Notes: a model not told the origin generated them from the sequence alone. A stretch of 64,000 nt of DNA from an uncultured Verrucomicrobia subdivision 3 bacterium (GCA_903865745.1 CAIPKV010000025.1:1907-65906), one strand, 5' to 3'; positions 1,573 to 61,487 are shown, counted from the first letter of the stretch. Program-made: numbers and translations.

Positions 1573-1925
1573 GGGGGCGTACTGGTTTCGACCATGTGAA
1601 CACGCCAGAGGCGGCATGCCGAGGACGATGCGTTGGCCTCGTAAATAATCGCATCAAAACTAAAAAGCTAACGAAGAACTAGCCCTCGCGGCCTAAGCGC
1701 CACGACGTTTGTCATTGGACACCTGCTACGGTGAACGAACGAAACAGCAGGCATGGTTGACGGCGGAGACCGCGCGTTGTCAGCCGAGATCTTATCATGC
1801 GGACTAGGCAGTGCGACTCGAGCTCCGGCGCCATCGCATAGCAGAAAATATTACCGGGGATAAGCATGTAGTCGCGGCTGGTAGGTTGACTTGGGACGCG
1901 GGTTCAATTCCCGCCGCCTCCACCA
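1573..1925 (+). ncRNA. ssrA: tmRNA (SsrA), tag reading frame ANEELALAA-stop at 1667-1696
   Basis: The 5' GGGGGCG pairs with the 3' CGCCUCC (G3-U pair), followed by an encoded ACCA. A T-arm-like GGGTTCAATTCCC lies near the 3' end. The internal frame GCT AAC GAA GAA CTA GCC CTC GCG GCC TAA ends in the canonical ALAA-type degradation tag. Confidence 0.9.
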
Positions 1926-8821: not shown

Positions 8822-9026
8822 GCTTAGGATGGTGTCAGCGTAAAAAATCAGGACCAAAGTAAGCATAAGTTGGTCGTAGCGTAGAAAATCATGACCAAAA
8901 CAAGCTTAGGATGGTCCAAGCACAGAAAATCAGGACCAAAGTAAGCGTAATTTGGTCATAGCGTAGAAAATCACGACCAAAACAAGCTTAAGGAGGTCCA
9001 AGCGCAGAAAATCATGACCTTCGGAC
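8822..9026. repeat. Tandem array of 5 x 41-bp units (alternating subtypes give an 82-bp super-period), each with a GGTC...GACC hairpin or palindrome
   Basis: Unit starts (GCTTA/GCATA/GCGTA) are at 8822, 8863, 8904, 8945 and 8986. Units 1, 3 and 5 resemble each other, as do units 2 and 4. The core is TGGTC-N(13-15)-GACCAAA with the constant centre AGAAAATCA. Confidence 0.9.
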
Positions 9027-9070: not shown

Positions 9071-9170
9071 TAGCCACAGATGGGCACAGATGAAACACAG
9101 ATAAATGCCCCAGAACCTGGCGCAAATAGAAATTTCCATCTGAGTTTCATCTGTGTCTATCTGTGGCTTA
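9071..9170. repeat. Large imperfect palindrome built from CACAGAT motifs
   Basis: The left arm tagccacagatgggcacagatgaaacacagat (9071-9102) matches the reverse complement of the right arm (9139-9170) at 28 of 32 positions. CACAGAT recurs at 9075, 9085 and 9096, a spacing of 10-11 bp. Confidence 0.85.
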
Positions 9171-9217
9171 AACTATTGCGGCTTTACTCACCGGCGAACG
9201 CAGTTCATTTTTTCGGT

Positions 9218-11137
9218 ATGGCTTATTCGCGGAACAACCTGGATTGGATGTGCGAACGCGGCATCTTGGCGCTCGTCATCGGGATGCTGATGTTCGCACC
9301 GCTGGCGTTTGGCGCGGTGGATACCTGGGCTTGGCTGGTCGTGCAGGTGCTGGCCGCGGGAGTCTTCCTGCTATGGATCGCGCGGCTGTGGTTGAACCCC
9401 AAACCCCGGCTGCTCTGGCCGCCACTGGCGTGGGTGGTGCTGGCCTTCATGGTCTATGCCGTGGCGCGCTGGTGGACGGCGGATATCGAGTACGTGGCGC
9501 GGTTGGAGACGCTTCAGGTCTTGGTGTTTGGCTTCGTGTTTTTCGCAGCGCTAAATAATCTGCGGGGGCAGGAGGAAATTTCAGCGGTCAGCACTGCGCT
9601 CATCGTGACGGGCACATTTTCGGCGTGCTACGCAGTGGCACAGATGACGCATCATAGCAATCAGGTCTGGAATGAGATTTCGCCCTATCTCAACCGTGCG
9701 TCGGGCACTTACATCTCCCCGAACGACTTGGCGGGCTATCTGGCGCTGCTGCTGCCGCTGGCGCTCGCTTATCTGCTGGTCGGCAAATTGCATATCGTTA
9801 CGCGCATTCTTTTGATCTATGCGGCCATCGCCATGGCCGCCGGATTGGCGGTGACGTTTTCGCGCGCGGGTTATATCGCGGCGGCAGCGGGGATTGTGCT
9901 GCTATTGGGAATTTTACTCTTTCATGGCAATCATCGGCTGAAAGCGGTGGTGCTCCTCGCCGTGCTGCTGGCCGGCGGCGGGTTTGCGACGACACATTAT
10001 CTGTCGAAGACGCTAGGCTACATGCGGCGCGTGGCCGAACCCGGCGCGACGCTAAGCGTGGATGTGGTCGGCGATAGCTCGAGCACGCGCTGGTCATTGT
10101 GGCAGGCGGCGGGGCGGATGTGGCTGGATCACCCGTGGTTTGGCGTGGGGCCGGCGCACTATGACTATCTTTTCCGCAAGTACCGTCCGGAAACGCTGCA
10201 GTTGCGTCCGGACCGGGCGCATAATGATTATATTAATCTGCTGGCAGATTGGGGCACCGTGGGCGGCGGGATTGTGTTGGCAGGCATGGGCATCTTCGTT
10301 TTCTGGTTAAGAAAAAGCTGGCCACACGTGCGCCGCGATGAAAACGCCTTTGGCACCGGGCAGAGCAACCGTTTTGCGTTTTTTTTAGGCGCAGCGTGCG
10401 GGCTAACGGCGTTGGCAGTGCATTCGGCGATGGATTTTGATTTGCACATCCCGGCCATCGCGCTGACAGGCGTGACGTTGCTAGCGCTCGCAGCGAGTAC
10501 CGCCCGATATGCAACGGAACGCTGGTGGTATCGGCCACAGCTTCCGGCGAAGCTGGCTGGCACGGCGGCATTAGGGGTGACGGCGTTTTACTTGTCCGCG
10601 CAGGCGTTCCGGCTGGGCAACGAGTCAAAGTGGCTGGCGCAGGCGCAGGCGCTGCCGATATTCTCATCGGAACGAGCCGCGACTTTGGCCCAGGCTTATG
10701 CGGCTGAGCCGAAAAACTTCGCGACCGCCTATGCCATTGGCGAATGCTACCGGACCCAGAGCCTGACCGGCGGACACGATTACATCGAGCTTGGGCAGAA
10801 AGCCTTGGACTGGTATGCGCGCGCCATCCGCAATAATCCACTGGATGGCTACAGCTATCTGCGCACGGGCATGTGTCTGGACTGGTTGGACCGAACCGCA
10901 GAGTCGGGACCGGCTTATCGCGCGGCGGAAAGCTGCGAGCCGAATGGGTATTATTTGGTGGCGAACATTGGCTGGCATTACGTTCAAACTGGCGATTATG
11001 CGGCCGCCGAGGAATGGTTCAAGCGGTCGTTGAGGCTGAGCGGGAACAACCCAATCGCCGAAAACTACCTGGCGATTTGCGAGGCCAAACTGGCGGAGCG
11101 AGCGTCGGGACGGCCGCAATTACCGGCGAATTATTGA
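9218..11137 (+). CDS. O-antigen ligase (Wzy_C/RfaL-like) family membrane protein with C-terminal TPR-like region
   Basis: About 10 TM helices and the motif RPDRAHNDYINLLADWG typical of O-antigen polymerase/ligase loops. The C-terminal soluble part has TPR-like repeats. ATG at 9218 is chosen because the ORF-track start at 9080 lies inside the palindrome. Confidence 0.8.
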   Translation: MAYSRNNLDWMCERGILALVIGMLMFAPLAFGAVDTWAWLVVQVLAAGVFLLWIARLWLNPKPRLLWPPLAWVVLAFMVYAVARWWTADIEYVARLETLQVLVFGFVFFAALNNLRGQEEISAVSTALIVTGTFSACYAVAQMTHHSNQVWNEISPYLNRASGTYISPNDLAGYLALLLPLALAYLLVGKLHIVTRILLIYAAIAMAAGLAVTFSRAGYIAAAAGIVLLLGILLFHGNHRLKAVVLLAVLLAGGGFATTHYLSKTLGYMRRVAEPGATLSVDVVGDSSSTRWSLWQAAGRMWLDHPWFGVGPAHYDYLFRKYRPETLQLRPDRAHNDYINLLADWGTVGGGIVLAGMGIFVFWLRKSWPHVRRDENAFGTGQSNRFAFFLGAACGLTALAVHSAMDFDLHIPAIALTGVTLLALAASTARYATERWWYRPQLPAKLAGTAALGVTAFYLSAQAFRLGNESKWLAQAQALPIFSSERAATLAQAYAAEPKNFATAYAIGECYRTQSLTGGHDYIELGQKALDWYARAIRNNPLDGYSYLRTGMCLDWLDRTAESGPAYRAAESCEPNGYYLVANIGWHYVQTGDYAAAEEWFKRSLRLSGNNPIAENYLAICEAKLAERASGRPQLPANY

Positions 11138-18335: not shown

Positions 18336-19418
18336 ATGCATAACGGCCTCAACCTTAAATCCTCCGGCGCACTGGATTTCCTCTCCCTCGGTGCGCTCGT
18401 GAATCGTCTCGACCCAGGCATTATCCCGTTCCGCAAGGCGACGCACTGCGACATTCATGTCAGCGGCGGTGAATTCAATGTTTCCGCCAATCTCGCCGAC
18501 TGTTTCCACCTTAACACCGGCATTGCCAGCGCAATGGTGGATTATCCCATCGGTGACCTTATCGCTGAGCGCGTCCGGGCGATGGGCGTCAAGCCGTTCT
18601 ACAAGAAGTTCAAGCACGACGGCGTGCGTGGACCAAACATGGCCACAGTTTATTCTGATCGCGGCCAAGGCGTCCGCGCTCCCGTCGTTTTTTACAACCG
18701 CAGCAACGAAGCCGCCGGCCAGCTCAAGCCCGGCGATTTCAATTGGAACGAAATTTTCGGTGCTGGCGTGCGCTGGTTTCACAGCGGCGGTATTTTCGCC
18801 GCCTTATCCGAGACGACCGGCGAACTTATAGTTGAGGCGATGAAAGCCGCCAAGACTGCCGGTGCGGTTACCTCGTTTGATTTGAACTATCGCCAAAAGC
18901 TCTGGGACATCTGGGGTGGTCAGGCGAAGGCCGTGGATGTCCTTGCCCGCATTGTGCAGAACGTGGATGTGCTCGTCGGCAACGAAGAAGATTTGCAGAA
19001 AGGCCTTGGCATCGAAGGTCAGGACGTAGAATCTAAATCCAAGCTCGATCCGTCGGCGTTTTACGCCGTCATTGAGAAAGCCACGAAGAAATTTCCCAAT
19101 GTCAAAATCGTCGCTACCACGCTGCGTGAAGTTCATTCGACCAACTGCCATACTTGGGGCGCAGTCGCGTGGGTCAACGGCAAAACCTACCAGTCGCCAA
19201 TGTGCGAACTGGATGTTGTGGACCGTGTCGGCGGCGGCGACGGCTATGCCGCGGGCTTTTTCTACGGCCTACTGTCCGGCGCGAGCGAGCAGGAAGCCGT
19301 GAACCTGGGTTGGGCACACGGTGCACTGCTGACCACCTACCCCGGCGACACTACAATGGCGACGGTCGAGCAGGTCAAGGCGTTTGCCAAAGGCGGTTCT
19401 GCCCGCATCCAACGCTAA
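18336..19418 (+). CDS. PfkB-family sugar kinase, 2-dehydro-3-deoxygluconokinase (KdgK)-like, paralog 1
   Basis: 360 aa. Ribokinase/PfkB signature near the C-terminus (DRVGGGDGYAAGFFYG) and a GNEED motif. Confidence 0.85.
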   Translation: MHNGLNLKSSGALDFLSLGALVNRLDPGIIPFRKATHCDIHVSGGEFNVSANLADCFHLNTGIASAMVDYPIGDLIAERVRAMGVKPFYKKFKHDGVRGPNMATVYSDRGQGVRAPVVFYNRSNEAAGQLKPGDFNWNEIFGAGVRWFHSGGIFAALSETTGELIVEAMKAAKTAGAVTSFDLNYRQKLWDIWGGQAKAVDVLARIVQNVDVLVGNEEDLQKGLGIEGQDVESKSKLDPSAFYAVIEKATKKFPNVKIVATTLREVHSTNCHTWGAVAWVNGKTYQSPMCELDVVDRVGGGDGYAAGFFYGLLSGASEQEAVNLGWAHGALLTTYPGDTTMATVEQVKAFAKGGSARIQR

Positions 19419-19520: not shown

Positions 19521-20795
19521 ATGCTGTATTTCGCGCGCGGTTCCACTACCGATATACTGTCCAAAGCCGATCTGCGCGCGGGTTTATTTGCTGCGCTAAA
19601 CAAACTTGGCGCGCGCAACCGTGTCTTGGCCGTGCCGCCCGACTTCACGCGGTTTCACTCGCAGGCCGGCTTGCTGACCACCCTCGTGCATGAATTTTAC
19701 GGCGACCGGTTGACCGATGTTTTACCCGCGCTCGGCACCCACACCGCGATGACCAGCGAGCAAATTGCGGAAATGTTCCCCGGCGTTCCCGAAAAACTAT
19801 TCCGCATCCACAATTGGCGCTCCGGCATCACCACAGTCGGCGAAGTGCCCGCCGCGTTTGTCAAAGAAGTTTCCGAAGGTGCCGTGAATTTTTCGTGGCC
19901 CGCGCAGGTTGCCAACCTGATCGCCAGCGGTGGACACCATTTAATTCTGTCCATCGGCCAAGTCGTGCCGCACGAAGTCATCGGCATGGCGAATTATAAT
20001 AAAAATATTTTCGTCGGCACCGGCGGCGCCGAGGGCATCAACAAAAGCCACTTCGTCGGCGCAGCTTACGGCATGGAACGCATGATGGGACGCGCGAATA
20101 CTCCCGTTCGCAAAATCCTTAATTACGCCTCGGAACATTTTACCAAGCATCTGCCGATCGTTTATGTCCACACCGTGATCGGGCGTGGCGACGATGGCCA
20201 GCTTGTCGTGCGCGGCTTGTTCGTGAGCGACGATGCGTCCGGCTTTGAACAGGCGGCGGCCCTGTCATTGGAGACTAATTTCGAGATGCTTGCTGAGCCG
20301 TTGAAGAAAGTCGTCGTTTACCTCGACCCCGCCGAGTTCAAGAGCACCTGGCTTGGCAATAAGGCCGTCTATCGCACGCGCATGGCGATGGCTGACGGCG
20401 GCGAACTCATCATTCTCGCGCCCGGCTTGAAGGAATTTGGCGAAGACCACGAGATTGACCGGCTCATTCGCAAGTACGGCTATCGCGGCACCCCGGCGAC
20501 GCTCGCCGCGACGCAGGCCAACGGCGAGTTGCAAAATAATTTGAGTGCCGCCGCGCATTTGATTCATGGTTCGAGCGAAGGCCGCTTCAACATCACCTAT
20601 TGTCCCGGCCATTTGACGCAGGCGGAAATCGAAAGCGTGAATTTTAAATACGCCAACCTGCAAACGATGACCCGGCGTTACAATCCGAAGCAGCTCAAGG
20701 ACGGCTGGAACACGCTGGCCGACGGCGAAAAGATCTTCTACATCTCCAATCCCGCGCTTGGTCTTTGGGCTTGCCGCAGCCGCTTCGATAAATAG
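19521..20795 (+). CDS. LarA-like (lactate racemase / DUF2088 superfamily) protein, putative nickel-pincer-dependent 2-hydroxyacid epimerase
   Basis: 424 aa. His74 (ALGTHTAM), then His151-x9-Lys161-x15-His177 (VVPHEVIGMANYNK...INKSH). This reproduces the His174/Lys184/His200 spacing I recall for L. plantarum LarA. Confidence 0.65.
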   Translation: MLYFARGSTTDILSKADLRAGLFAALNKLGARNRVLAVPPDFTRFHSQAGLLTTLVHEFYGDRLTDVLPALGTHTAMTSEQIAEMFPGVPEKLFRIHNWRSGITTVGEVPAAFVKEVSEGAVNFSWPAQVANLIASGGHHLILSIGQVVPHEVIGMANYNKNIFVGTGGAEGINKSHFVGAAYGMERMMGRANTPVRKILNYASEHFTKHLPIVYVHTVIGRGDDGQLVVRGLFVSDDASGFEQAAALSLETNFEMLAEPLKKVVVYLDPAEFKSTWLGNKAVYRTRMAMADGGELIILAPGLKEFGEDHEIDRLIRKYGYRGTPATLAATQANGELQNNLSAAAHLIHGSSEGRFNITYCPGHLTQAEIESVNFKYANLQTMTRRYNPKQLKDGWNTLADGEKIFYISNPALGLWACRSRFDK

Positions 20796-20854
20796 CCGGT
20801 GGTAGCCATTTAATTCACCCACCAGCCGGATAAATTCACGAACGGACCGGCCAA

Positions 20855-21169
20855 AAACGAAGATTGGCCTCAAAGAACCATTGGTTAATGTCGTTGCATC
20901 GACGATTGCTGGCCTCAAATCGGTCATGGGCACCTCCAAATCGAGGGTGAACGCAGTTAAATCGATGATTTATCGGGGCGAAACGACCATTGGCGGGATC
21001 CAATCGATGATGGACGACCGTAAATCGATCATGGACGAGGTTAAATCGATCATTTAGACAATCAAATCGATGATGAACGCCTTCGAAACGACCATGAACG
21101 AGACCAAATTGACGATGAACCGGTGGAAATCGATGATTAATCCCTGCAAAAACATGAAAAGGCCCCGAA
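20855..21169. repeat. Tandem array A: about 15 units of exactly 21 bp, consensus AATCGATSATGRACG + 6 variable nt
   Basis: The anchor motif AA(T/A)CGA sits at 20855, 20918, 20939, 20960, 20981, 21002, 21023, 21044, 21065, 21086, 21107 and 21128. All offsets are multiples of 21. Confidence 0.9.
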
Positions 21170-21380
21170 ACAGGACGATTTGGGCGTTGCCAGCGTAGCA
21201 AACCCTTCCGGCATTGGCCGACCCGCCGTTATAGACACAAAAGTCATCCCTGCTGCTTTTGTGTATTTCGGGTATTTCGTGGTAAAATTCAGTCGTCGCG
21301 AACTTTCCGCACTAAACCATTCGCGCCAATCATTCTATTTGAGTTCGCCAGCAATTCTTCGCTAGAATTCGAATCACTTT

Positions 21381-22478
21381 ATGGCCATTCCGCTTCGCGA
21401 AAAATCCACCTGCCACTACGACCAGATTTCCTTGGGCGAAGTCATGCTGCGGCTCGACCCCGGCGAAGGCCGCATCCGCACCGCCCGCTCGTTCACCGCG
21501 TGGGAGGGCGGCGGCGAATACAATACTTCGCGCGGCCTGCGCAAATGTTTCGGCCTCAAAACCGCCGTCTGCACCGCGTTCGTTGACAACGAGGTCGGCC
21601 ATCTCATCGAGGATTTTATCATGCAGGGCGGCGTCAGCACCGACTTCATCCAGTGGCGCGCGGACGACGGCATCGGTCGCAGCATTCGCAACGGGCTGAA
21701 TTTCACCGAGCGCGGTTTTGGCATCCGGGGCGCGGTCGGCGTTTCGGATCGCGGCAATTCCGCCGCGGCGCAGCTCAAGCCGGGCGATTTCGATTGGGAT
21801 AATATTTTTGGCAAGATCGGTACGCGCTGGCTGCACACCGGTGGCATCTTCGCCGCCCTCTCGGAAACAACCGCGGCGCTGACTATCGAAGCGGTGAAGG
21901 CGGCAAAGAAGCATGGCGTCGTCGTCAGCTACGATTTGAATTATCGTCCGTCGCTTTGGAAATCCATCGGCGGCCTCAAAAAAGCGCAGGAGGTGAATCG
22001 CGAAATCGCCAAATACGTGGACGTGATGATTGGCAACGAAGAAGATTTTACGGCTTCGCTCGGCTTTGAAGTAAAAGGCGCGGATCACAACTTGAGTACG
22101 ATTGAAACGGATGCGTTTAAGGCGATGATTGAAACCGCGGTGAAGACCTATCCGAATTTCAAGGTGGCCGCGACCACCTTGCGCCGCGTCATCACCGCGA
22201 CGAAAAACGACTGGAGCGCGATTCTCTGGCACGACGGCAAATTTTTCGAGAGCCGGAAATATCCGGAATTGGAAATCCTGGACCGTGTCGGCGGCGGCGA
22301 CAGTTTTGCGAGCGGCCTGCAATTCGGCTTCCTCGAATTCAACGATGCGCAGAAGGCGGTGGAATACGGCGCGGCGCACGGTGCGCTGGCTTCGACCACG
22401 CCCGGCGACACGAGCATGGCCACGCGCAAGGAAGTGGAAAAAACCTTTAGCGGCGGCAGCGCCCGCGTGCAGCGATAA
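21381..22478 (+). CDS. PfkB-family sugar kinase, KdgK-like, paralog 2
   Basis: 365 aa, colinear with the kinase at 18336-19418 (shared blocks AAQLKPGDF.W..IFG, GGIFAALSETT, DLNYR, GNEED, DRVGGGD). Confidence 0.85.
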   Translation: MAIPLREKSTCHYDQISLGEVMLRLDPGEGRIRTARSFTAWEGGGEYNTSRGLRKCFGLKTAVCTAFVDNEVGHLIEDFIMQGGVSTDFIQWRADDGIGRSIRNGLNFTERGFGIRGAVGVSDRGNSAAAQLKPGDFDWDNIFGKIGTRWLHTGGIFAALSETTAALTIEAVKAAKKHGVVVSYDLNYRPSLWKSIGGLKKAQEVNREIAKYVDVMIGNEEDFTASLGFEVKGADHNLSTIETDAFKAMIETAVKTYPNFKVAATTLRRVITATKNDWSAILWHDGKFFESRKYPELEILDRVGGGDSFASGLQFGFLEFNDAQKAVEYGAAHGALASTTPGDTSMATRKEVEKTFSGGSARVQR

Positions 22479-35359: not shown

Positions 35360-36598
35360 ATGCAGGCTGAAAACTTATCTACGGCTAGCGGGGAGCCGCC
35401 TTCGGGCAACTCATTACCGAACTTAAAAACCTTCCGTTCCGCCGGGCGCGGCTATTGGCACGATGTTGCGGACGCCGACTGGAACGACTGGCGCTGGCAG
35501 CTTAAACACCGCATCACGACGGTGGAGCAATTGCAGAAATTTCTCCCCACGCTGACGCCCGAAGAATATGCCGGTGCCAAGCTCGCGAACACCAAGCTCG
35601 CACTCGCCATCACGCCCTATTTCTTTAATCTCATCAATCCGGCAGATGAAAACTGCCCCATCCGCTTGCAAGTCATTCCCAAGCTGGCCGAGACGCACAC
35701 CGCGTCGTGGGAGATGAGCGACCCGTGCGGCGAAGATTCGCATTCGCCTGTGCCCGGACTCGTGCATCGTTATCCCGACCGCGTGTTGTTTCTGGTGACG
35801 GATCGTTGCGCGGCGTATTGCCGCTATTGCACGCGCTCGCGGCTCGTCAGCAATGCGACCGGCTACGACTTCCATCCGGAGTTTGACAAGCAAATCGCCT
35901 ACATCGCCGCGCACCCAGAAATCCGCGACGTCCTCCTGAGCGGCGGCGACCCGCTGCTGTTAAGCGACGAGAAGCTGGAAAATCTGTTGAGCCGGCTGCG
36001 CGCCATTCCGCACGTCGAGTTTCTCCGCATCGGCTCGCGCATCCCGACGTTTTTGCCGCAGCGCATCACGCCGGAATTGTGCGCGATGCTCAAACAGTTT
36101 CATCCGCTCTTCCTGAGCATCCACTCGAATCATCCGCGCGAGCTCACCACCGAAGTGCGCGCCGCCCTGGGCCGGCTCGCCGACGCCGGCATCCCGCTGG
36201 GCAACCAGACCGTGCTGCTCAAGCACGTCAACGACGACGCCGATGTGATGAAGGCGCATTTGCAAAAGCTGCTCATGTGCCGCGTCAAACCGTATTACAT
36301 CTATCAATGCGATTTGATTGCCGGCTCCGCCCACCTGCGCGCGAGCGTGCGCACGGGCCTGGCCATCATGGAGAAATTGCGCGGCCACACGACCGGTTAC
36401 GCCGTGCCGACCTATGTGATCGACGCTCCCGGCGGCGGCGGCAAGGTGCCGGTGAGTCCGGAATACGTCTTGAGCCGCAATGCCGACCGCGTCGTCATCC
36501 GCAACTTCGAGGGTAAAATCTTCGAGTATCCCGAAGCTGCCGACGGCAGTCCGCTCAGCCAGCCGCCAAATGAAATTGTAGCTCCGGAGCTGGTTTAA
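35360..36598 (+). CDS. kamA: Lysine 2,3-aminomutase (KamA-family radical SAM enzyme)
   Basis: Radical-SAM CxxxCxxC (CAAYCRYCTRS), SGGDPL, and KamA-type N- and C-terminal regions. Length is 412 aa. Confidence 0.9.
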   Translation: MQAENLSTASGEPPSGNSLPNLKTFRSAGRGYWHDVADADWNDWRWQLKHRITTVEQLQKFLPTLTPEEYAGAKLANTKLALAITPYFFNLINPADENCPIRLQVIPKLAETHTASWEMSDPCGEDSHSPVPGLVHRYPDRVLFLVTDRCAAYCRYCTRSRLVSNATGYDFHPEFDKQIAYIAAHPEIRDVLLSGGDPLLLSDEKLENLLSRLRAIPHVEFLRIGSRIPTFLPQRITPELCAMLKQFHPLFLSIHSNHPRELTTEVRAALGRLADAGIPLGNQTVLLKHVNDDADVMKAHLQKLLMCRVKPYYIYQCDLIAGSAHLRASVRTGLAIMEKLRGHTTGYAVPTYVIDAPGGGGKVPVSPEYVLSRNADRVVIRNFEGKIFEYPEAADGSPLSQPPNEIVAPELV

Positions 36599-36740
36599 GG
36601 GTCGCCCCTGACGGAGCGTGCTTCCTTGGTGTTGCCACATCTATCTCAGTGCCAGCCCAACCGGCTTCGCTCCCCCCGTTCGCACCAAGGGACAACCTAA
36701 CCATGGTTAGGCGGAAGCCACAGCCGCATCTTTGGTTGAG

Positions 36741-36971
36741 GCATCCGCGTGTTGGTTTGCCACAGCCGCGTGTTTACTTGGAGCATTCCCGTGTTTGTTT
36801 GAGGCAAGCGCGGATTCACTTGAGCCATTCCCGTGTTTACTTACCGCAAGTGAATACGCGCTCGGGGCATTCCCGTATTCACTTGCCCCATGCGCGTGTT
36901 TGGTTGGGGCATTCGCCTACGCGAATGCCCCATTTGAATACGCGCTCGGGCCAAATGAATACGCGGATGTG
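36741..36971. repeat. Tandem array B: 11 units of exactly 21 bp in two mutually complementary subtypes (GCATTCCCGTGTTTACTTG / GCAAGTGAATACGCGCTCGGG)
   Basis: The anchor C(G/C)CGTG sits at 36746, 36767, 36788, 36809, 36830, 36872, 36893 and 36914, all offsets of 21 or 42. There is a perfect 13-bp hairpin at 36846-36858/36874-36886 and a perfect 12-bp hairpin at 36905-36916/36921-36932. Confidence 0.9.
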
Positions 36972-37153
36972 GTGTCCCGAACGTGGAAAATGCTGGAAAA
37001 CCCGCCTTTTGCCCCGGTTAAGACGGAAATGGCGCGGTTCCGTGGTAAAACGGCGGGTTCAGCATCAAAATCGGCGGCCGCAAAGTTTGCTTGGTCTAGT
37101 TGCCGCTTCTTGTTTAAACTTTCACGACAGTTTTGAATCAAAAGGAACATTTT

Positions 37154-39430
37154 ATGGCTACATCACACATTTGGAAATTCTTCCGCGCCGGCGGCTTTAA
37201 TCAGGTTGTCATCGGCACGGGCGCCGACCTCGCCAACCTCGACCAGCTCGACCAGAAACTTTGGGTCGCCCTCGCCTGCCCCACCACCGGCATCGAATTT
37301 GATCCGACCACGCTCGCGCTCATCGACACCGATAAGGACGGTCGCGTGCGTGCGCCGGAACTCATCGCCGCCGCCAAGTGGGCCGCCGGCCTCATCAAGA
37401 ATCCGGATGACCTGCTCAAAGGCAGCCCCACGCTCAAACCCTCCGCCATCAATGACGCCACGCCGGAAGGTAAATTGATCGCCAACTTTGCGCGCCAGGT
37501 TTTGGGCAAGGCCGATGACGGCGAAGTGACTTTTGACGAAGCCGCCGCCGCCGCCGCGACCTTCGCCGCCAAGCCCTTCAACGGCGACGGCATCATCCCC
37601 GCCGAGTCCGCCAGCGACGACGCGACGAAAGCCGTCATTGCCGACATCATCAACTGCCTCGGCGCGGATGCCGATGTGAGCGGCAAGCCCGGCGTGAGCC
37701 AGGCCAAGGTGGACCAGTTTTTTGCCGAAGCCGCCGCGTATTCCGATTGGTGGAAGAAGGCCGAAGCCGACGCCACCGTACTGCCGCTCGGCGTGAATAC
37801 CGAGGCCGCCGCCGCCGCCGTCAAGGCAGTCAAGGTGAAGGTGGAAGATTACTTTGCGCGCGGCCGGCTCGCCGCCTTTGACCCGCGCTCCGTCAACGCG
37901 CTCAACCGCGATGAAAAAGATTACGTGGCGCTCGGCACAAAAGATTTGACCAATAATCACGCCGATATCGCCGGCCTGCCGCTCGCGCAAGTCGGCGCAA
38001 CCACGCCGTTGCCGCTCACGCAAGGCATTAATCCCGCGTGGGCCGGCGCGATTGCGGCACTGCAAACGAACGCCATCGTGCCACTGCTCGGCGCGCGGAC
38101 GGTGTTGACGGAGGCGGATTGGAACGCGCTCACCGGCAAGCTCGCCGCGTTCGACGCGTGGAACGCCAGCAAGACCGGCGGCGCCATCGAGAAAATCGGT
38201 CTGGCCCGCGCGCGGGAAATTCTCGCCAGCAAGGCGAAGGAAACGTTGACCGCGCTCATCGCGAAGGACGCCGCGGAAGCGGGCAATTCCACCGCCGTCA
38301 TCGGCCTGCACCGGCTGATTCATTATCATCGCGACCTCGCGAAGCTCTGCCGCAACTTCGTCAACTTCGCGGATTTCTACGGCCGCAAGGACAAGGCCAT
38401 TTTCCAAGCGGGCACGCTGTATCTCGACCAGCGCAGTTGCGACCTGTGCCTCACGGTGGACGACGCCGGCCGACACGCGACGATGGCGGGCATGGCGGGC
38501 ACTTACCTGGCCTACTGCGATTGCGTCCGTAAGGGCACCGGTGAGAAGTTGTCCATCGTCGCCGCGTTCACCGGCGGCGATTCTGATAACTTAATTGTCG
38601 GTCGCAACGGCATTTTCTACGACCGCGCGGGTCGCGACTGGGATGCCACCATCAGCAAGATTGTGGAAAATCCCATCAGCGTCCGGCAGGCCTTCTGGTC
38701 GCCGTACAAAAAACTGGTGCGCATGATCGAAGAACGCGCCGCCAAAGCCGCCGCCGATGCCGATGCCCAATCCAATGCAAACCTGACAGCCGTGGCGAAT
38801 ACGCCCGTCTCCCCGACGGCGGCTCCAGCTGCGCCGGCAAAATCCGCCTTCGATCCGAGTGTCATCGCCTTGCTCAGCTTGGCCTTCGGTGCCTTGGCCA
38901 CGGCATTCGCAGGCTTCTTGACCTTCCTTGGTAGATTTAACGAAGATCAATGGAAGCTGCCGCTGGTTATTCTTGGCATCATGCTATTGATTTCCTCGCC
39001 GTCCATGGCCATTGCGTGGCTGAAACTGCGCAAGCGCAACCTTGGTCCGATTCTCGACGCCAACGGCTGGGCAGTGAACGCCAAGGCGAAGATGAACGTG
39101 CCATTCGGTGGTGCGCTTACCGGGGTGGCGGCGCTGCCGCCGGGCGCGACGTTCGGGGCGCCGGACAAATATGCGGAGAAGCCGTCCGCCTGGCCGAAAG
39201 TTCTGGCGGTCGCGTTCGCACTGTGGTTCGTCTGGGCATTCCTCAACGACAGTCAAGGGCGGCTCTACAATTGGACGGATGGTCAATACGGCACGCCGCC
39301 GCTATCGGTCCGCGAACAGATTGCCAAAGACAAACAAGACAAACTCAACAAAGCCAAGGCTTCTGTTTCGGGCACCAACGCCGTGCCAGCCACGGTTTCG
39401 GCGGTAACCAACGCGGTTCCAACGAAATAA
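37154..39430 (+). CDS. Large membrane protein with an N-terminal canonical EF-hand loop, function unknown
   Basis: The start at ATG 37154 is preceded by AAAGGA. DTDKDGRVRAPE matches the 12-residue EF-hand loop pattern D-x-D-x-D-G-x-(hydrophobic)-x-x-x-E. The C-terminal region has 3 or more TM helices. Confidence 0.7.
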   Translation: MATSHIWKFFRAGGFNQVVIGTGADLANLDQLDQKLWVALACPTTGIEFDPTTLALIDTDKDGRVRAPELIAAAKWAAGLIKNPDDLLKGSPTLKPSAINDATPEGKLIANFARQVLGKADDGEVTFDEAAAAAATFAAKPFNGDGIIPAESASDDATKAVIADIINCLGADADVSGKPGVSQAKVDQFFAEAAAYSDWWKKAEADATVLPLGVNTEAAAAAVKAVKVKVEDYFARGRLAAFDPRSVNALNRDEKDYVALGTKDLTNNHADIAGLPLAQVGATTPLPLTQGINPAWAGAIAALQTNAIVPLLGARTVLTEADWNALTGKLAAFDAWNASKTGGAIEKIGLARAREILASKAKETLTALIAKDAAEAGNSTAVIGLHRLIHYHRDLAKLCRNFVNFADFYGRKDKAIFQAGTLYLDQRSCDLCLTVDDAGRHATMAGMAGTYLAYCDCVRKGTGEKLSIVAAFTGGDSDNLIVGRNGIFYDRAGRDWDATISKIVENPISVRQAFWSPYKKLVRMIEERAAKAAADADAQSNANLTAVANTPVSPTAAPAAPAKSAFDPSVIALLSLAFGALATAFAGFLTFLGRFNEDQWKLPLVILGIMLLISSPSMAIAWLKLRKRNLGPILDANGWAVNAKAKMNVPFGGALTGVAALPPGATFGAPDKYAEKPSAWPKVLAVAFALWFVWAFLNDSQGRLYNWTDGQYGTPPLSVREQIAKDKQDKLNKAKASVSGTNAVPATVSAVTNAVPTK

Positions 39431-51597: not shown

Positions 51598-54500
51598 TTA
51601 CGGATAAACCAACCGGTAGTACTCGTTCGTCATGCCGACCTTGATGATTGTGAGGTTAGTCGACGTGATATTCGTGGAGCCCAAAACCGTACCCCAGTCG
51701 GTCTTGTTGCTGCTCACACCCTTGTTCAAGTTGTTCGTCTGCACCAGCAACCGGTAGCCCAAATAACCCTGCGGCCAGCTCAACACCAAGCTGGTTCCCC
51801 CGCTTACGCTGTTCGTCAAATGCGGCGGGCTGTTGGTGATTGGCTGCAACAATGCGTTCACGGTATAAACATTCGTCTGCAACCCATCCTGCGATACCAC
51901 CTGCACCGCCAGCACGTTTGCCGGCTGGCTTAGGCTCAGGGCGTTGTTCGCGCTCGCCACCCCATTCGTTAACGGGATGTTGTAGTTGCTACCGTTGTTG
52001 AAGCTCAACGCCACCGCCGCGTTCCCATCCGCACTCGTGGCCGTCACCGCCACATTGGTATTCGGATACGTGTTCGTCGCCGTGTAGTTCGTCAGGCCGC
52101 TGCTAAACGACTGGCTCAAAGCCCACGGTGAGATGAGCAGGCTGGTTAGTAGCGCATTCGTGCCCTGCAAGGTCACGTTCACCGTGTAGCTGTTCATCAC
52201 CGACCCGTCTTGCGATACTGTCTGCACCGTCACGTTGTTCGACCCCTCGACCAGACCCGTCGCCGTCGTCAGCGGACTGCTGGTCAGACCGTTGGTTAAG
52301 TAACCTACATTCGAACTGTTCACATACAGCGTATTCGTCGCATTCGAATCAATATTTGTTATCGTCACCGTTAGCGGTAAGCTCGCCAAGCTGTTGGTTG
52401 CTGTGTAGGGTCCGCTCGGCAAGTTTGTGCTGAATGATGTCGGAGAAAAGGGCAACTGCACATTCGCCGCATTGCTCAGGACCAGCGAGGTCAGGTAGGT
52501 GGTCGAGCTTGACGCAGAGCCCAACTGCGTTAGGGACACCACATAGGTGCTTGTCTGCGACCCGTCCTGCGAAACCACCTGGACCGACACGTTGGTCGTG
52601 CCGACATTCAAGGTCAGCCCGCTGCTGGCAATTTCGTTGGTCAGCACTTGTTTTGTGGTAGTGCCCAATAGGAGCGTGTTCATCGCCGTGGCATCCACGT
52701 TCGTCACCGTCACCGTCACCGTCACCGGGCCGGCGCCAGCGGCATTCGTCGCATAGTAGATGCCGGTGTTGGTCGTCGCGAAGGGGGACGGATAGAAGGT
52801 CAGTGCTCCGGTGCCGTTGCTGATTACCAAGTTCGCCAACTGGGCGTTCGTGCTCAGCCGCGTCACCGTCACGAAGTAGTTGCTTACCGTCAAGCCGTCC
52901 TGGGCCGTTACCTGTACCCGGATGACGTTTGTCGAGCCTACACCTACCGCCAGCGGCAGGCTCGTCACCTCATTGGTCAGCAGGCCCTGTGACACGTTGT
53001 TCAAGAACAACTGATTCGTCGCAAAAGCCGAGTTGTTCGTTACCAGCACCGTCACGGACGAATTTGCGTTGTAGTTCGTCGCGAAATAGTTCGTCGTGCC
53101 GGGGTGGAAGGTCGGTGAAACCGAGGCGTTCACCACCAAGTTAAACAGACTCGCATCCTTGCTGGCTGTGCTAACCACGAGGTTGACATGCCCAGCACCA
53201 TCATTGGTGATGGTTCCGAAGGTGCCACTTTGCGGAGTGTCAAACACCACCGCAGTGGCAAACTGTGTTCCATTGGTCGTCCCGTAGGTGAACAGATTGT
53301 TGTAAGTACCCGCCGCCAACTGCCCGCCGCCGGTGTTGATTTCAACCACGCTGCCATTCGGCGATAACAGGCCGGCGACCGCCACGGTGTTGCTGACCCC
53401 GCCAGCGGTGGTCACCACAAACAGGTTGGTGGAGGTGGCATTCAAGGTCAGGTTGCTGTTGAGGGTCAACTGGCCTATGCCGTTGACACCGGGATATAGC
53501 ATCGCGCCGGCATTATTCGTCACCACATTGCCCAAGGTGCCGGTGCCGCTCAAGATGCCGCCGCTGTTAACCGTCACCGGGCTGGCCGTGATCTGGCCGT
53601 TGACCTGCAGCGTGCCGGCATTGACGGTGGTCTTGCCGGTGTAAGTGTTGCCGTTGTTATTAAGAATCAACTTGCCCGTGCCGACCTTGGTGATCGCACT
53701 TGGGCCACCACCAGAAACGCCGCTGCCATTGGTGATAACTCCGTCAATCACGCTCGTCGTGTTCAACGCGCCAATCTGATAGGTTTGAGTGGCGACGTAA
53801 TCCGCGCCGCCCAGTGCTGACGACGCATCCACGTTGAGCGCACCAAACTGCGCGGTGTTGCCGCCGGAATTGTTCATTCCAACCAAACTGACCCCGCCGA
53901 CGCCCGTGATAAGATTGACGGTCGCGCCGCTCAAGTTGCCGTCAAAAGAGCCGCCATTGACGTTGTTGAAGTTCAAAACCAGGTAGGCGTTGGCCTCCGC
54001 GCCAGTAATATTAAGCGTGCCTCCAAAATTGGCGCAGGTGGATAGACAGTCGCCAATGACTGAACTGCTGTTTTGCGGCTGCTGGTTGTTAACCTGAAGA
54101 TTCAAGGTTCCCGAACCGTAAAGAGCTGGCAGCTTCATGGCATTCGTCATGATAATCAGGCCATTGGTTCCGCTGGGCACCGTCAGGCTAATCCCATTCA
54201 GATAGATTCCGTTCGCCGTCACACCCAGCGTGCCGCCTTCCAAGGTGGTCATGCCCGTGCCAAGATTGGTTGCCGCACCGATAAGCAGTTTGGCCGGATA
54301 ATTTACCGTTGTGCCGCCACTGTAATTATTGTTGCCGCTAAGGGTCTGGGTGCCGGCACCCGCGATGACCAATGCAATCTTACCGTTGCTGCCATTGACA
54401 TTGGTATCCAGAATCAAGCCGGCGTAAGTCGGGGCGCTCCAATTGCTGATGGTGAGCGTATTGACGCCGGTGCCGCCGTTATTGACAATCCGGCCCAGTG

Positions 54501-57500
54501 TGGTGCCGGTAATGCCCGAAAGGCCATTCAGCGTCTGGTTGTTGCCATTCAAGTCCAGGGTGCCAGCCGTGCTGCCGCCATCCAGAACCGTCCAACCCGT
54601 TACGCCGACGGGGAGCACCGCCGGGCCGGCCAGCTTGACCGTGCCACCATTGATAGCGGTGTTGTTGGCATAAGTATTGACCCCGCCAAAGATGTTGGTG
54701 CCCGGACCGTTAAAGCTTACCCAGCCATTGCCGCTGATGCCATTGGTCACGGCATAGGTGCCGGCCAGATCAAAGGCGACGGTGCCGCTATTGGTCAGGC
54801 TGATGGCATTGGTCGGAAACGCTGTCGTGCCGCCGTTACCAAATTGAAGGGTACCCGTGTTGATCACGGTTGCGCCAGCGTAGGTGGTATTGCCTGCCAG
54901 GGTCACCGTATTCGAGCCCTCTTGAACGAGGCTGCCAGTGCCGGTTAAGTTGCCCACCACCGTATAGTTGTTGTTCGTCTGATCAAAAATCAGGAGCGCG
55001 TTGTTGGTGATGACACCGGCACTAAGGCCCGTGTTCGGGGTGTTGCCATCGCCGACCTGCAACACGCCGCCATTGATGGTCGTCGGGCCGGTGAAGTCAT
55101 TGGTGATGAGTAGCGTCAGCGTGCCGGAGCCGGTCTTGGTCAGACCGTTGGTCATGATGCCGGTAATCTTGCCTAAGCCGCTAGTGCTATTAAACGTGTA
55201 ATTGGACGAACCGCTCACCATGACGCCGCTGGGCGACACTGGCAGCTGCAAATTCACCGGGGAATTTGCCGCGCCCGCATTATTAAAGGTGACGCTGTCG
55301 CCGTTTAAAAAGGCTTCGTCATCCACACCAACCAAGTTCGTCCAGTTGATGCTGCTCGTGTCCCAGTAGTTGGCCGAACCGTCACCAATCCAGGTCAGAC
55401 TATTCGTACCAAGCGTCAGCACAATGAGTTGAATATGACCGGCGTTATCATCATGCAGCGTGAAAAACTGGTTGCCCACTTGGGCGGGAGTCACATTCAA
55501 GTTGGCGGTCACGGAGCCGCTGATGGAGTCATAGGTAATGAGCGTATTAGTGCCATCGGGCAGCGTGCCGGAAATGTTCAACTTGACCGTGCCAGCGCCG
55601 GCCAGGGTCAATCCGCCTGTCACCGCGACCAAATCGTTGGTGCTGCTGCTGATGTCAAACAAATTGGTGTTCCCATTCAATATCAGTCCACCCGTAAAAG
55701 TGAGCGTGCCATAATTACCCAGACCGGTGACACCCGGGGCAAGCGTGCTGCCAGGGGCCATGCCCACCGGTGCCTGGTTATTGAAGCTACCGGTGCCAGC
55801 CAGCGTTGTTCCGGCATAGTTGGTCGTAGCGGTATAGCCGCCCAGCAGGCTGTCCACCTCCAGCGTACCGCCACTGACTATCGTCGGGGCGGAATAATTA
55901 TTCGCACCGCCGCTCAGGACCAGCAGACCGGTACCAACCTTGGTCAGACCGGTGTATTGAGAGCCATCGGTGATGTTACCAGCAAAGGTGCTGGTCGTGT
56001 TCAGGTTGCCGACCACGAAGATGCTGGGAAGCGTGGTGTTACCACCGGGATTGGACGTGTTGCCGGCGGTGAGCCCAGATCCGGCACTACCGTTTAACGC
56101 ACCGAGATAAACCGTCTGGTTGCCATATTTGCTGTTAATATTTCCGGTCGCGCCCAGATTCCAGGTCGCATTTGCACTGCCATAAGTGGTAGCCGTAGTA
56201 ACGATGCTGGCCCGGATGCCGCCGTTGAGGTTGATGATGCCGCTAAAACCGCTCACGCTGCCGCTCGGGCTAAAGGTGCCACCAACAATATCCAGGTTCA
56301 CCGTCCCGCCGCCGACGAGATTGAGCGCTGGATAATAGCCACCGGTGCCATTGAATTCGAGCGTACTGATCGCGCTGGGCGCATTGCTGATGGTGTTGGC
56401 AATGTAGGCGCCGTTTTCATATAGAGTGCTGCTGTTATTGAGCGTGACCAGGCCGCTACCGAGGCTGCCGACGCCGGTGAGCGTCACCTGGCCGCTGTTG
56501 ATCACCGTGCCGCCGGTGTAGGTGTTGGCCGCCGTCAACGTCAGGATTCCGGAAGAATTCACATTCAAAGCCACCGTCTTGGTGCCGCTGCCCAGTACAT
56601 CTTCAATCACGCCACCAAACGTCGAGCTGCCGCCATTGTAATTGAGGGTTGAAGCCGCCACGGTACCGCCGTTGCCGATGTAGCAGGTGGTGGCACCGGT
56701 AGCAATGGCCAGACTGCCCACCGTCAAACCGCTGTTGTTCAAATCCAGAATGCCGTTCGTGACGCTGCTGCCCAGTGTCAGGGTGTTGATGGCGCTGTTG
56801 CCGCCAATGGCCAGTGTGCCGCCCGCCTCGACGGTTACATTGCCGGAGCCGTTAATGGGGCCGGTGGCCACCCGGCTGGGCGAATCCATCACCAAGGCCG
56901 CGTTGTTGGTGACGCTGCCCGTTCCGATCGCTCCGGAGATGGTGCCGTTACCGAGCTGCACCGTGCCGCTATTGATAATTGTGCCGCCGGTGTAAGTGTT
57001 GGCGGTCAGAATGGTCAAGGTTCCGGTACTGTTATTGGTCAGGGCGGTCGCACCGCCGATTACCCCGGTGTTGGTGAAAGTATAGCTCTGGGTGCCATTG
57101 ACGGTCACGCTGCCCGGGGTGAGCGCCCCCACCAGATTGACCGTTGTATTGGCGGAAGTGTTATCAAAGATTGTATTATCACTGTCATTATACACCCACG
57201 GATTAACCGAAGTAGTGGTGTCGTCCCAGTTCGACGTGGTATTCACATCCCACTGGCCGCCCGAAACGTTACCAACCCAGGTCAGGTTCTGGGCGACATA
57301 GGTGCCAACCACCAGATTCAATCCGCCCGAAACCGCCGACAACGAAACCGACTGGCCGCTCTGCGTAAAGCCAGATATGGCTATGGCAGACAACGATCCA
57401 CCCGGCGTGCCACTGCAATTGATCAACCGGTAAGTGCCATTGGCCAGCGTGCCATTCGCGATGCTCAATTGGATGTTGCCGGAAGTGAGAGTCAGTCCAC

Positions 57501-60224: not shown

Positions 60225-60602
60225 ACCTATCTTCTCGGTCTTGCATCCTCCCGTCTCGCTGATGATTCCTCCCCGCTCCGTCACTGATCCTCCCGCCTGT
60301 GTCGCAATTCCTCCCCACTCGCTGACCAACCCTCCCGTCTCGGTCACTGATCCTACCCGCTCGCTAATGATTCCTACCCGGTCGGTCGCCAATCCTACCT
60401 TCTCCGTGACTAATCCTACCCTCTCGATGACGTATCCTCCCGTCGCAATGACGGATCCTCCCATCTCAGCCACGCATCCTCCCGTCTCGATGATAATTCC
60501 TCCCCTGTCAGTCACCGTTCCTCCCGTCTCAATGACACTTCCTCCCGTCTCCGTCGCACTTCCTCCCGTCTCCATGACGGATCCTCCCGTCTCCGTCGTC
60601 AC
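60225..60602. repeat. Tandem array C: 18 units of exactly 21 bp, 12-nt conserved core TCCTCCCGTCTC + 9-nt variable tail
   Basis: TCCT anchors sit at 60246, 60267, 60288, 60309, (60330), 60351, 60372, 60393, 60414, 60435, 60456, 60477, 60498, 60519, 60540, 60561 and 60582. A degenerate unit lies at 60225. Confidence 0.92.
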
Positions 60603-60833: not shown

Positions 60834-61487
60834 TCATCGCTGGGAAGAACCGCCGCGGTTCTGGCCGAGATGCTTGGCCACGGCTTCAGTGCGGGAGCGC
60901 ACATGCAGCTTCTCATAGACGTGCCGGATGTGCGTATGCACCGTAGCGTAGCTGACCTTCATCTGGTCGGCGATTTCTTTGTAGAGAAAACCTTTGGCCA
61001 GCAAATCCAAAACTTCGGCTTCCCGCGGCGACAGGCTCTGCGCTTCGGCGGATACCGCCACGGGCTGCTGGAAGGATTGCACAATCTTCCGCGCAATGTG
61101 ACTGCTCATTGGCGAGCCGCCGGACTGAACTTCTTTGATGGCGGTGAGCAACTCGGCGGGCGGCGTTTGCTTGAGCATGTAGCCGGTGGCACCCGCCGCG
61201 AGCGCATTGAAGATATGTTCCGTATTCTGATACACGGTGAGCATGATGAGTTGCGTACCGGGCAGCAGCGGTTTGAGCCGCCGCACACATTCCACGCCGT
61301 TCATGCCCGGCAGGTTGATGTCCATCAGGATGACGTTGGGCTGGATTTTGGGCAGCTCTTTTAGCGCGTCCTCCGCATTTTCGTGCCGGCTCAAGCATTG
61401 AAAGCCTGGTGCACCGTCAATCAGCTTGGCCAGACTGCCCCGAACCTGCGCGTTGTCCTCGACGATGGAAACGGAAATTTTATTCAT
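60834..61487 (-). CDS. LuxR/NarL-family response regulator
   Basis: REC domain (VILMDINLPGMNG) plus a C-terminal GerE/LuxR HTH (LSPREAEVLDLLAKGFLYKEIADQMKVSYATVHTHIRHVYEKL). Confidence 0.92.
   Translation of the reverse strand: MNKISVSIVEDNAQVRGSLAKLIDGAPGFQCLSRHENAEDALKELPKIQPNVILMDINLPGMNGVECVRRLKPLLPGTQLIMLTVYQNTEHIFNALAAGATGYMLKQTPPAELLTAIKEVQSGGSPMSSHIARKIVQSFQQPVAVSAEAQSLSPREAEVLDLLAKGFLYKEIADQMKVSYATVHTHIRHVYEKLHVRSRTEAVAKHLGQNRGGSSQR

Follow-up and report, generated by a model that had tools for sequence, protein, structure and literature searches.

A 64,000-nt stretch of DNA (GCA_903865745.1, CAIPKV010000025.1:1907-65906; hereafter the window, meaning the whole stretch analyzed), whose best genome matches are to uncultured Verrucomicrobia subdivision 3, carries 15 direct repeats of exactly 21 bp each at 20855-21169 on the plus strand. 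These repeats, which we call array A, lie between the gene of a protein with a Lar_N (lactate racemase N-terminal) domain, termed LarA-like (larA), and the second of two PfkB kinase genes (kinase1 and kinase2), within an insertion that is specific to this species. Array A is real and statistically strong; an asymmetric core recurs in it every 21 bp between randomized linkers, its bases are constrained at the level of nucleotides, and neither of the two heptad reading frames that cross it carries a coding signature. Our reading, which we hold tentatively, is that array A is non-coding and constrained as a nucleic acid, most likely as a phased platform of multiple binding sites; its partner would be a protein that binds DNA rather than RNA, and it may affect transcription.

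Register, core and linker

When 20771-21260 was laid out in rows of 21 bases, every unit of array A was seen to open AA(A/T)CGA..AT. At lags of 21, 42 and 63 the self-identity of the array was 0.558, 0.51 and 0.575, respectively, compared with approximately 0.25 at the remaining lags and 0.258 +/- 0.025 in shuffled sequences (z = 12). Layout and autocorrelation thus bear out the strict 21-bp register of 15 units that an earlier note on this DNA, made from the sequence alone, had described. No indel is needed to align the 15 units despite 47% divergence between them. Tandem Repeats Finder (TRF) at default thresholds detected only 3.7 copies, a shortfall explained by the low mean identity between units (53%). 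The best-kept units number 11 (20918..21148) and contain all six exact copies of the palindrome ATCGAT. Two degenerate units directly upstream, which have 13 of 21 positions in common and match the core weakly, are tentatively regarded as a possible extension of the array. Array A occupies 315 bp of the 585-bp spacer between larA and kinase2, or 357 bp if these two units are included, and what is left of the spacer carries the kinase2 promoter and a hairpin that ends in a U-rich tail; the claim that the array fills this gap was therefore right as to its location but not as to its extent.

Within the unit, a core AAWCGAYSATK (10-11 nt) is followed by semi-conserved positions 12-15 and random positions 16-21. 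Across the 15 units, information content was 1.3-2.0 bits at A1, A2, C4, G5, A6, A9 and T10 and 0.5-1.1 bits at T3, T7, S8 and K11, falling to about 0.6-0.8 bits over positions 12-15 and to 0-0.8 bits over positions 16-21. The distribution of mismatches from the consensus is correspondingly uneven, with only 26 of 107 inside the best 10-nt block (p about 5e-5). A conserved block had indeed been recognized earlier, at a length of 15 nt, of which the strongly conserved part is only 10-11 nt. Linker positions 16-21 show an identity among units of 0.32 against a random expectation of 0.26, i.e., they are saturated, and core identity among units is 0.70 with no decay with the distance that separates two units.

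The exact palindrome ATCGAT is present in 6 of the 15 units, all in a single phase (20961, 21003, 21024, 21045, 21066, and 21129). The earlier description of ATCGAT as a phased palindrome that recurs along the array thus stands with regard to phase, and fails with regard to recurrence in each unit. Conservation around the center of ATCGAT is moreover asymmetric: A2 is invariant (2.0 bits), while its dyad partner T7 (0.5 bits) is among the weakest positions of the core, and the palindrome is for this reason probably incidental. Since conservation is not dyad-symmetric, the selected feature is the asymmetric AAWCGAYSATK, repeated head-to-tail every 21 bp, rather than the palindrome. Outside the array, the window holds 2 ATCGAT sites where 15.3 (dinucleotide model) or 7.4 (fourth-order Markov model) would be expected; this depletion is a side note and not an explanation of the array, since many other palindromes are depleted too. 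For the idea that array A might be a cluster of restriction-modification or methylation sites, the sparse and asymmetric palindrome counts against, and the scarcity of ATCGAT elsewhere counts in favor.

Numerous palindromes of 6 bp are strongly underrepresented across the window, with TCTAGA at 0, ACATGT at 1 against 12 expected, GGGCCC at 2 against 25, GCATGC at 5 against 38, and ATCGAT at 2 against 15 outside the array. GATC and CATG are likewise depleted. This pattern suggests a history of several restriction-modification systems.

Reading frames across the array

Two frames across the array read as heptads, one on each strand, and they share codon boundaries, so that they are antisense to one another and mutually in phase. 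Both an in-frame TAG in the plus frame (21055-21057) and an open minus-strand open reading frame (ORF) with H-x-R-F heptads (20836-21201) had been reported previously, and both were recovered here. That one frame is open at this site is unremarkable: in that frame stops are absent from the core, and no more than about 28-45 codons can vary freely.

We consider it improbable that the minus frame is a gene, one that would encode a horizontally acquired, coiled-coil-like heptad protein of 121 aa related to the R-F heptad (DUF7310-like) proteins. It is the only frame fully open across the array, its third positions are marginally less conserved than the other two (0.80 vs. 0.91 and 0.96 bits), and a foreign-looking composition could excuse its odd codon usage. 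Against this, its only available start codon is TTG, with no ATG or GTG, and the sequence upstream is GC-rich; of the 25 genes of the window that were checked, 23 start with ATG, and upstream sequences there are AT-rich without a Shine-Dalgarno motif. The ORF has a GC content at third codon positions (GC3) of 0.34 and a codon log-likelihood ratio of -0.38 per codon, whereas 105-codon segments of genes in the window give 0.69 +/- 0.08 and +0.42 +/- 0.18 (minimum +0.06). The third base is T in 12 of 14 units at heptad position 2 and likewise in 12 of 14 at position 3, and A in 10 of 14 at position 4, and the residue at position 3 varies (H, R, G, D, P, Q, L) though its third base is locked; GC3 within the ORF ranges from 0.07 to 0.86 by heptad position. 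Selection on a protein would lead to the reverse of this combination of locked third positions and varying amino acids. The limits of the ORF coincide with those of the array, leaving no non-repeat N- or C-terminal domain, and a single-sequence AlphaFold2 model was uninformative (mean predicted local distance difference test score, pLDDT, 47.7). In Pfam and NCBIfam neither the minus nor the plus frame had a match, a word-based homolog search of both frames against 5.8 billion protein clusters returned nothing, and the corresponding frame of a related-looking metagenome array (L149, described below) contains 6 stops. We judge the minus ORF to be a by-product of the repeat and not a gene.

An argument on the other side comes from HMMER: searched against 1.84 billion representative proteins, the minus ORF gave 472 matches at E <= 1e-3. 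Among the best 150 of these, 102 are proteins shorter than 400 aa in which xxxRFxx heptads of the type [VILM]-D-x-R-F-[DE]-x occur in phase four or more times; some matches have VHHRF or VNGRF heptads like those of the array A ORF, and some reach the Pfam threshold for DUF7310 (PF23991). The likeness is that of strict heptads of the type hydrophobic-polar-x-R-F-x-x. The top matches, however, also include plainly unrelated heptad proteins (ILDSRFS, TPGRFDA, PMNERMG), and the E-values therefore reflect periodicity and not homology. The differences from the R-F heptad family are several: position 2 is H or N in the minus ORF but D in 70% and H in 1% of family heptads, D or E occupies position 6 in 3 of 8 heptads compared with 72% in the family, and the repeat residues are 3.6% Pro and 3.6% Cys compared with 0.2% and 0.03%. 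Start codon, codon pattern and Gly content are likewise wrong for a member, as is the lack of a Pfam match. A genuine R-F heptad gene recovered by a DNA pattern scan (L180) shows normal synonymous variation. As judged from these comparisons, the minus frame resembles the R-F heptad coiled-coil proteins in periodic pattern only. Array frames can thus gather very low HMMER E-values against unrelated heptad proteins, and periodicity may be mistaken for homology.

The plus frame, to which the earlier suggestion of a decayed heptad-repeat gene would apply, would encode K-S-[MI]-[MI]-[DN]-x-x heptads and would have been inactivated by the TAG at 21055. Its composition is closer to that of a gene, with a genome-typical GC3 of 0.66 and a codon log-likelihood ratio of 0.09 per codon, at the lower edge of the gene range; core positions 8 and 11, which vary, fall on the third base of a codon and give Met/Ile exchanges, and a gene caller reports a 43-aa ORF. 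The ORF at 20881-21057 is nevertheless terminated by the TAG, which is identical in three assemblies of the species, and the frame lacks a convincing start, as had been noted before. The codon at the Lys position reads xAA without exception and that at the Ser/Thr position almost always xCG, whereas first positions vary (K/Q/E, S/T), so that synonymous variation at these codons is nil; the genome itself shows no preference between AAA and AAG, and TCG makes up only 21% of its Ser codons. With no homolog, and with relatives that have no gene at this site at all, we regard a decayed plus-strand gene as highly improbable, and the suggestion is disfavored.

Taken together, the two coding readings are distinctly unlikely. 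The conserved bases include third codon positions of both candidate frames, and it is for this reason that we place the constraint on the nucleotide sequence. For annotation, the consequence is that arrays of this kind give open frames on both strands that gene callers report as proteins, as in the 43-aa and 33-aa calls and in a 124-aa call on another array of the window (array C).

The insertion and its candidate function

The genes around array A run in the order FabH, PilZ-like, PfkB, LarA-like, PfkB, short-chain dehydrogenase (SDR), and MFS transporter (Table 1). In relatives whose LarA-like protein is 90-91% identical, the order fabH, pilZ-like, kinase1, larA, kinase2, SDR, MFS is kept. 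The larA-to-kinase2 spacer of 585 bp is peculiar to this species: it measures 9 bp in two relatives (L002, L207), 78 bp in two others (L205, L206) and about 12 bp in another (L204) after correction of the kinase start. Only the last 25-45 nt, i.e., the promoter stretch, are shared with the spacer of L205, in which, as in that of L206, the TAGAAT (-10 element) and its distance to the ATG are kept. Because the spacer is long only here and so little of it is shared, the remaining 535 bp or so constitute a species-specific insertion or expansion. Array A is absent in all relatives examined at about 90% LarA identity, a seed unit of it was not found in their spacers, and the hairpin is not in their spacers either.

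Table 1. Coordinates of array A, its surroundings and other repeats and RNA genes of the window.
Feature	Position	Strand	Remarks
tmRNA gene	1573-1925		Rfam RF00023, 153.6 bits
Tandem array	8822-9019		41/82-bp period (4.5 or 2.4 copies), period not a multiple of three; inverted repeat GGACCAA..TTGGTCC in each unit; ends 61 bp upstream of gene 9080-11137
PfkB kinase (kinase1)	18336-19418		Upstream of the LarA-like gene
LarA-like (larA)	19521-20795		Lar_N domain protein
Species-specific insertion/expansion	20800..21335		About 535 bp, 48% GC in a 56% GC genome; within the larA-to-kinase2 spacer
Two degenerate units	20813..20854	+	ATTCAC..CCGG..AA; in the 21-bp register of array A (layout)
Open minus frame	20836..21201	-	121 codons; [V/I/L/A]-[H/N]-x-R-F-x-x heptads
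Array A	20855-21169	+	15 units of 21 bp
Plus heptad frame	20881..21198	+	K-S-[MI]-[MI]-[DN]-x-x; split by TAG 21055-21057 into ORFs of 58 + 42 aa
Hairpin, terminator-like	21237..21280	+	ACACAAAAG..CTTTTGTGT then AUUUCGGGUAUUUCG (U-rich tail); -13.5 kcal/mol, z = -1.4, modest
Promoter-like site	21339..21368	+	TTGAGT-18-TAGAAT; 12 nt upstream of the kinase2 ATG
Second PfkB kinase (kinase2)	21381-22478		Followed by SDR, then a divergent MFS transporter
Array B	36717-36905		About 9 units of 21 bp, 42-bp higher-order period, several frames open; between plus-strand genes 35360-36598 and 37133-39430
Array C	60245-60601		17 units of 21 bp; minus-strand core GAGACGGGAGGAT; an open ORF on each strand (133 and 167 aa); flanked by a 2781-aa gene (51598-59943, -) and a gene for a LuxR-type response regulator (60834-61487, -)

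Three independent assemblies of the species, a small sample, are identical over the whole spacer. The proposal that the array is a spacer of variable repeat number thus finds no support, and the units are too diverged for slippage; a contingency locus or variable-number tandem repeat was rejected on the same grounds. In one assembly of the same species (L201), identity holds up to 21481 and is followed by 86 differences in about 550 positions inside kinase2 (21482-22031), which would reflect either a strain recombination mosaic or a chimeric assembly that starts 100 bp downstream of the spacer. In one relative (L207, 3785-4881, and L208), kinase2 is split into three short ORFs, probably as a pseudogene or through assembly frameshifts.

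The mechanism we propose is as follows. Array A would have been inserted, or would have grown, within a formerly tight larA-kinase2 junction, and selection on the nucleic acid itself would maintain the core AAWCGAYSATK and the 21-bp spacing while linkers drift freely. A single sequence-specific protein may bind head-to-tail, with a site of 10-11 bp presented on one helical face every two turns, and may build a putative cooperative nucleoprotein filament over about 300 bp, as with plasmid iterons and ParR/parC-type sites. Lying approximately 170 bp upstream of the kinase2 promoter, the array, together with the hairpin, which looks terminator-like for plus-strand transcripts leaving larA and the array, would divide the ancestral operon into two units, and the candidate complex could insulate or tune kinase2-SDR expression. 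Array A would in that event illustrate how a tight operon is divided into two transcription units by a repeat insertion.

Several observations are consistent with this proposal. All repeats of array A are direct and their core is asymmetric, as for head-to-tail binding. An exact spacing of 21 nt is demanded by binding to one face of duplex DNA and is not generally necessary for binding to single-stranded RNA. The three 21-bp arrays of the window (A, B, and C) have unrelated cores and share the 21-bp period; the heptads read from B and C are rich in G-G or P-P and thus unable to form coiled coils, and helical phase therefore explains the period better than heptad codons do. No structured RNA was recognized in the array: folding of either strand was no better than that of shuffles (z = -0.3 and +0.2), and Rfam, searched with gathering thresholds for the full window and with E <= 10 for the spacer, gave only the tmRNA and one chance snoRNA-like match.

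The array could instead act as RNA, either within an approximately 480-nt 3' untranslated region of the kinase1-larA mRNA or as an RNA of its own ending at the hairpin, and would then offer an RNA-binding protein or small RNA 11-15 unstructured copies of AAAUCGAUSAUGRAC, as a sponge or scaffold. This we consider unlikely. The repeat strand is co-oriented with both flanking genes and has 33% A compared with 22% for the window, the array is predicted to be unstructured, its core is asymmetric and hence strand-specific, and a plus-strand hairpin with a U-rich tail lies downstream. The strict 21-nt spacing without a single indel, on the other hand, is more than single-stranded RNA usually requires, no Rfam family was found, the terminator is weak, no promoter-like site was found upstream of the array, and with GGA in about 3 of the 15 units the array is not CsrB-like.

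There is also evidence that weighs against the binding platform itself. The array A motif was found nowhere else in the 64-kb window, no cognate binding protein was found, and the insertion brought in no gene for a DNA-binding protein; moreover, each of the three arrays, having a core of its own, would require a separate binder. At this locus there is no cross-species conservation, and the case for purifying selection comes from the comparison of units only. The A-rich plus strand, its orientation and the terminator-like hairpin that follows suit a role as RNA equally well. Finally, the core/linker pattern could in principle come from the mechanism that generates the repeat rather than from selection.

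Another possibility, which we doubt more than we do the platform but slightly less than a role as RNA, is that array A is a functionless or selfish satellite, i.e., repeat DNA of foreign or translocated origin that came to lie in the spacer and does nothing for its host now, with a core/linker pattern left by an earlier constraint (such as recognition by a recombinase or transposase) or by the mode of repeat generation. Array A is species-specific, interrupts a conserved operon and lies in an insertion that forms a compositional island. Satellites are known in a minority of prokaryotes, where some have transposed (PMC6749651), and the window is unusually rich in them (3-4 in 64 kb). In the same direction, the related-looking L149 array is itself a compositional island. 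A neutral array with saturated linkers should, however, have lost its core and register as well. Furthermore, BLAST of array A against plasmids and phages, together with three pattern scans of viral contigs, found no arrays and returned only two-copy chance matches inside genes. Neither a target-site duplication nor terminal inverted repeats nor a second copy of the flanks was found, and a mobile-element reading is not supported on this basis. If array A is functionless, it represents a new non-coding satellite in an uncultured Verrucomicrobia lineage.

A pattern scan of metagenomes gave matches that were mostly due to chance, and among the matches listed only one, L149, looks related to array A; other ATCGAT-containing arrays among them, of 21 or 7 bp, are L154, L124, L185, and L140. 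L149 holds about 16 units of 21 bp at 480-940 with the core AAYCGATCTYGGA, compared with AATCGATSATGGA in array A, and forms an island of approximately 460 bp and 50% GC, downstream of a minus-strand gene, in a Bacteroidota-like metagenome contig of 31% GC. The two arrays are 82% identical over 50 nt, of which 18 bases are forced by the search pattern; beyond the forced bases the similarity is no more than suggestive, with a roughly 1-8% probability of arising by chance after multiple testing. The open frames of L149 and array A lie in different phases relative to the shared core, which points to conservation at the nucleotide level. Rfam gave no match for the L149 array.

Other short tandem repeats were seen in the window and at larA-like loci elsewhere. 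Array C has a Shine-Dalgarno-like GGGAGGA in 17 copies, though the genes of this genome show no Shine-Dalgarno motifs, and a 6.4-kb extension to the right of the window held no further arrays. In several Bacteroidota loci tandem repeats directly follow the larA-like stop codon (L026, 1803-2117; L031, 7261-7420; L032, 7280-7354; L077, 7288-7350; L079, 1670-1759), with 15 units of 21 bp in L026 and units of 7-18 bp in the others, and a Nibricoccus genome has a 28-unit 21-bp array upstream of kinase1 (L007, 4005-4600). At larA-like loci, 5 of about 13 arrays lie at the single intergenic position after the larA stop.

It is conceivable, though we think it quite unlikely, that array A is one of a class, so far undescribed, of 21-bp core-plus-linker arrays that move horizontally and serve as helix-phased docking platforms with multiple sites for a factor that binds DNA or RNA. 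The idea arises because three arrays with different cores occur within 64 kb, because L149 carries nearly the same core in a GC island while array A is a 48% GC island itself, and because arrays of <=21 bp recur beside larA-like or kinase genes in unrelated lineages (the five Bacteroidota loci and L007).

Comparison with known systems

Several known types of repeat and site were considered and set aside. A sponge RNA of the CsrB/RsmZ type does not fit the scarcity of GGA, the lack of a significant fold or the lack of an Rfam match. A CRISPR has repeats of about 23-50 nt and spacers of about 26-72 nt, compared with a core of 10-15 nt and a variable part of 6-10 nt here. LacI-type operators share a central AAnCGnT, but the flanking half-sites are not conserved in array A and there is no dyad symmetry. 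A Fur-box-like reading of GATGAT/GATAAT was dropped.

Tandem direct repeats upstream of a promoter also occur at ctxAB of Vibrio cholerae, where TTTTGAT heptads are reported to recruit ToxR and H-NS and set promoter strength (10.1101/2021.05.14.444153). The ctxAB repeats are perfect, 7 bp long, variable in copy number and adjoin the -35 element, whereas array A consists of diverged 21-bp units approximately 170 bp upstream of the promoter with a hairpin between.

The prokaryotic satellites surveyed by Subirana and Messeguer (2019, PMC6749651) are mostly either short arrays with near-identical units or coding repeats, and a density above 4 per Mb counts there as exceptional. Like them, array A is intergenic, tandem and phylogenetically sporadic, and satellites sometimes form families within one genome. 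The window differs in its density of about 50 per Mb, and array A differs in that its units are only 53% identical yet keep core and register, which indicates constraint. Array A fits the loose category of non-coding prokaryotic satellites, as one that is old and diverged, yet constrained.

Partition sites such as R1 parC, pSK41 parC and F sopC are repeats that small DNA-binding proteins (ParR, SopB or omega-type) coat cooperatively, building a filament or superhelix. Array A is likewise a long array of short direct repeats; it differs in that there are no parA, parM or parR-like flanking genes and no plasmid, and its unit sequence is unrelated.

In architecture array A parallels iterons as well, from which it differs by membership. 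It has 15 or more copies where iterons usually have 3-9, no rep gene lies nearby and only repeat ORFs lie inside the insertion, the nearest DnaA-box-like sites are at 16807 and 26372 with none within 4 kb of the array, and the lowest GC within the spacer is 46%, with no AT-rich unwinding element. With neither a rep gene nor a DnaA box nor any context of plasmid or phage, and placed within the conserved chromosomal synteny of a sugar-acid operon, array A is not an iteron. The likeness is in mode: the iterons of pSC101, R6K, P1, and RK2 are direct repeats of about 17-22 bp, i.e., about two helical turns, placed head-to-tail on one face, with a conserved asymmetric core and free spacer positions as in array A. 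What remains of the earlier suggestion of an iteron-like binding array is thus its architecture (asymmetric core, random linkers, two-turn register) and not its family. Replication origins and partition sites aside, bacterial chromosomes rarely contain, to our knowledge, long, strictly phased arrays in which only a core is conserved, and array A, if it binds a factor, would be a chromosomal, operon-internal instance of the iteron-like architecture.

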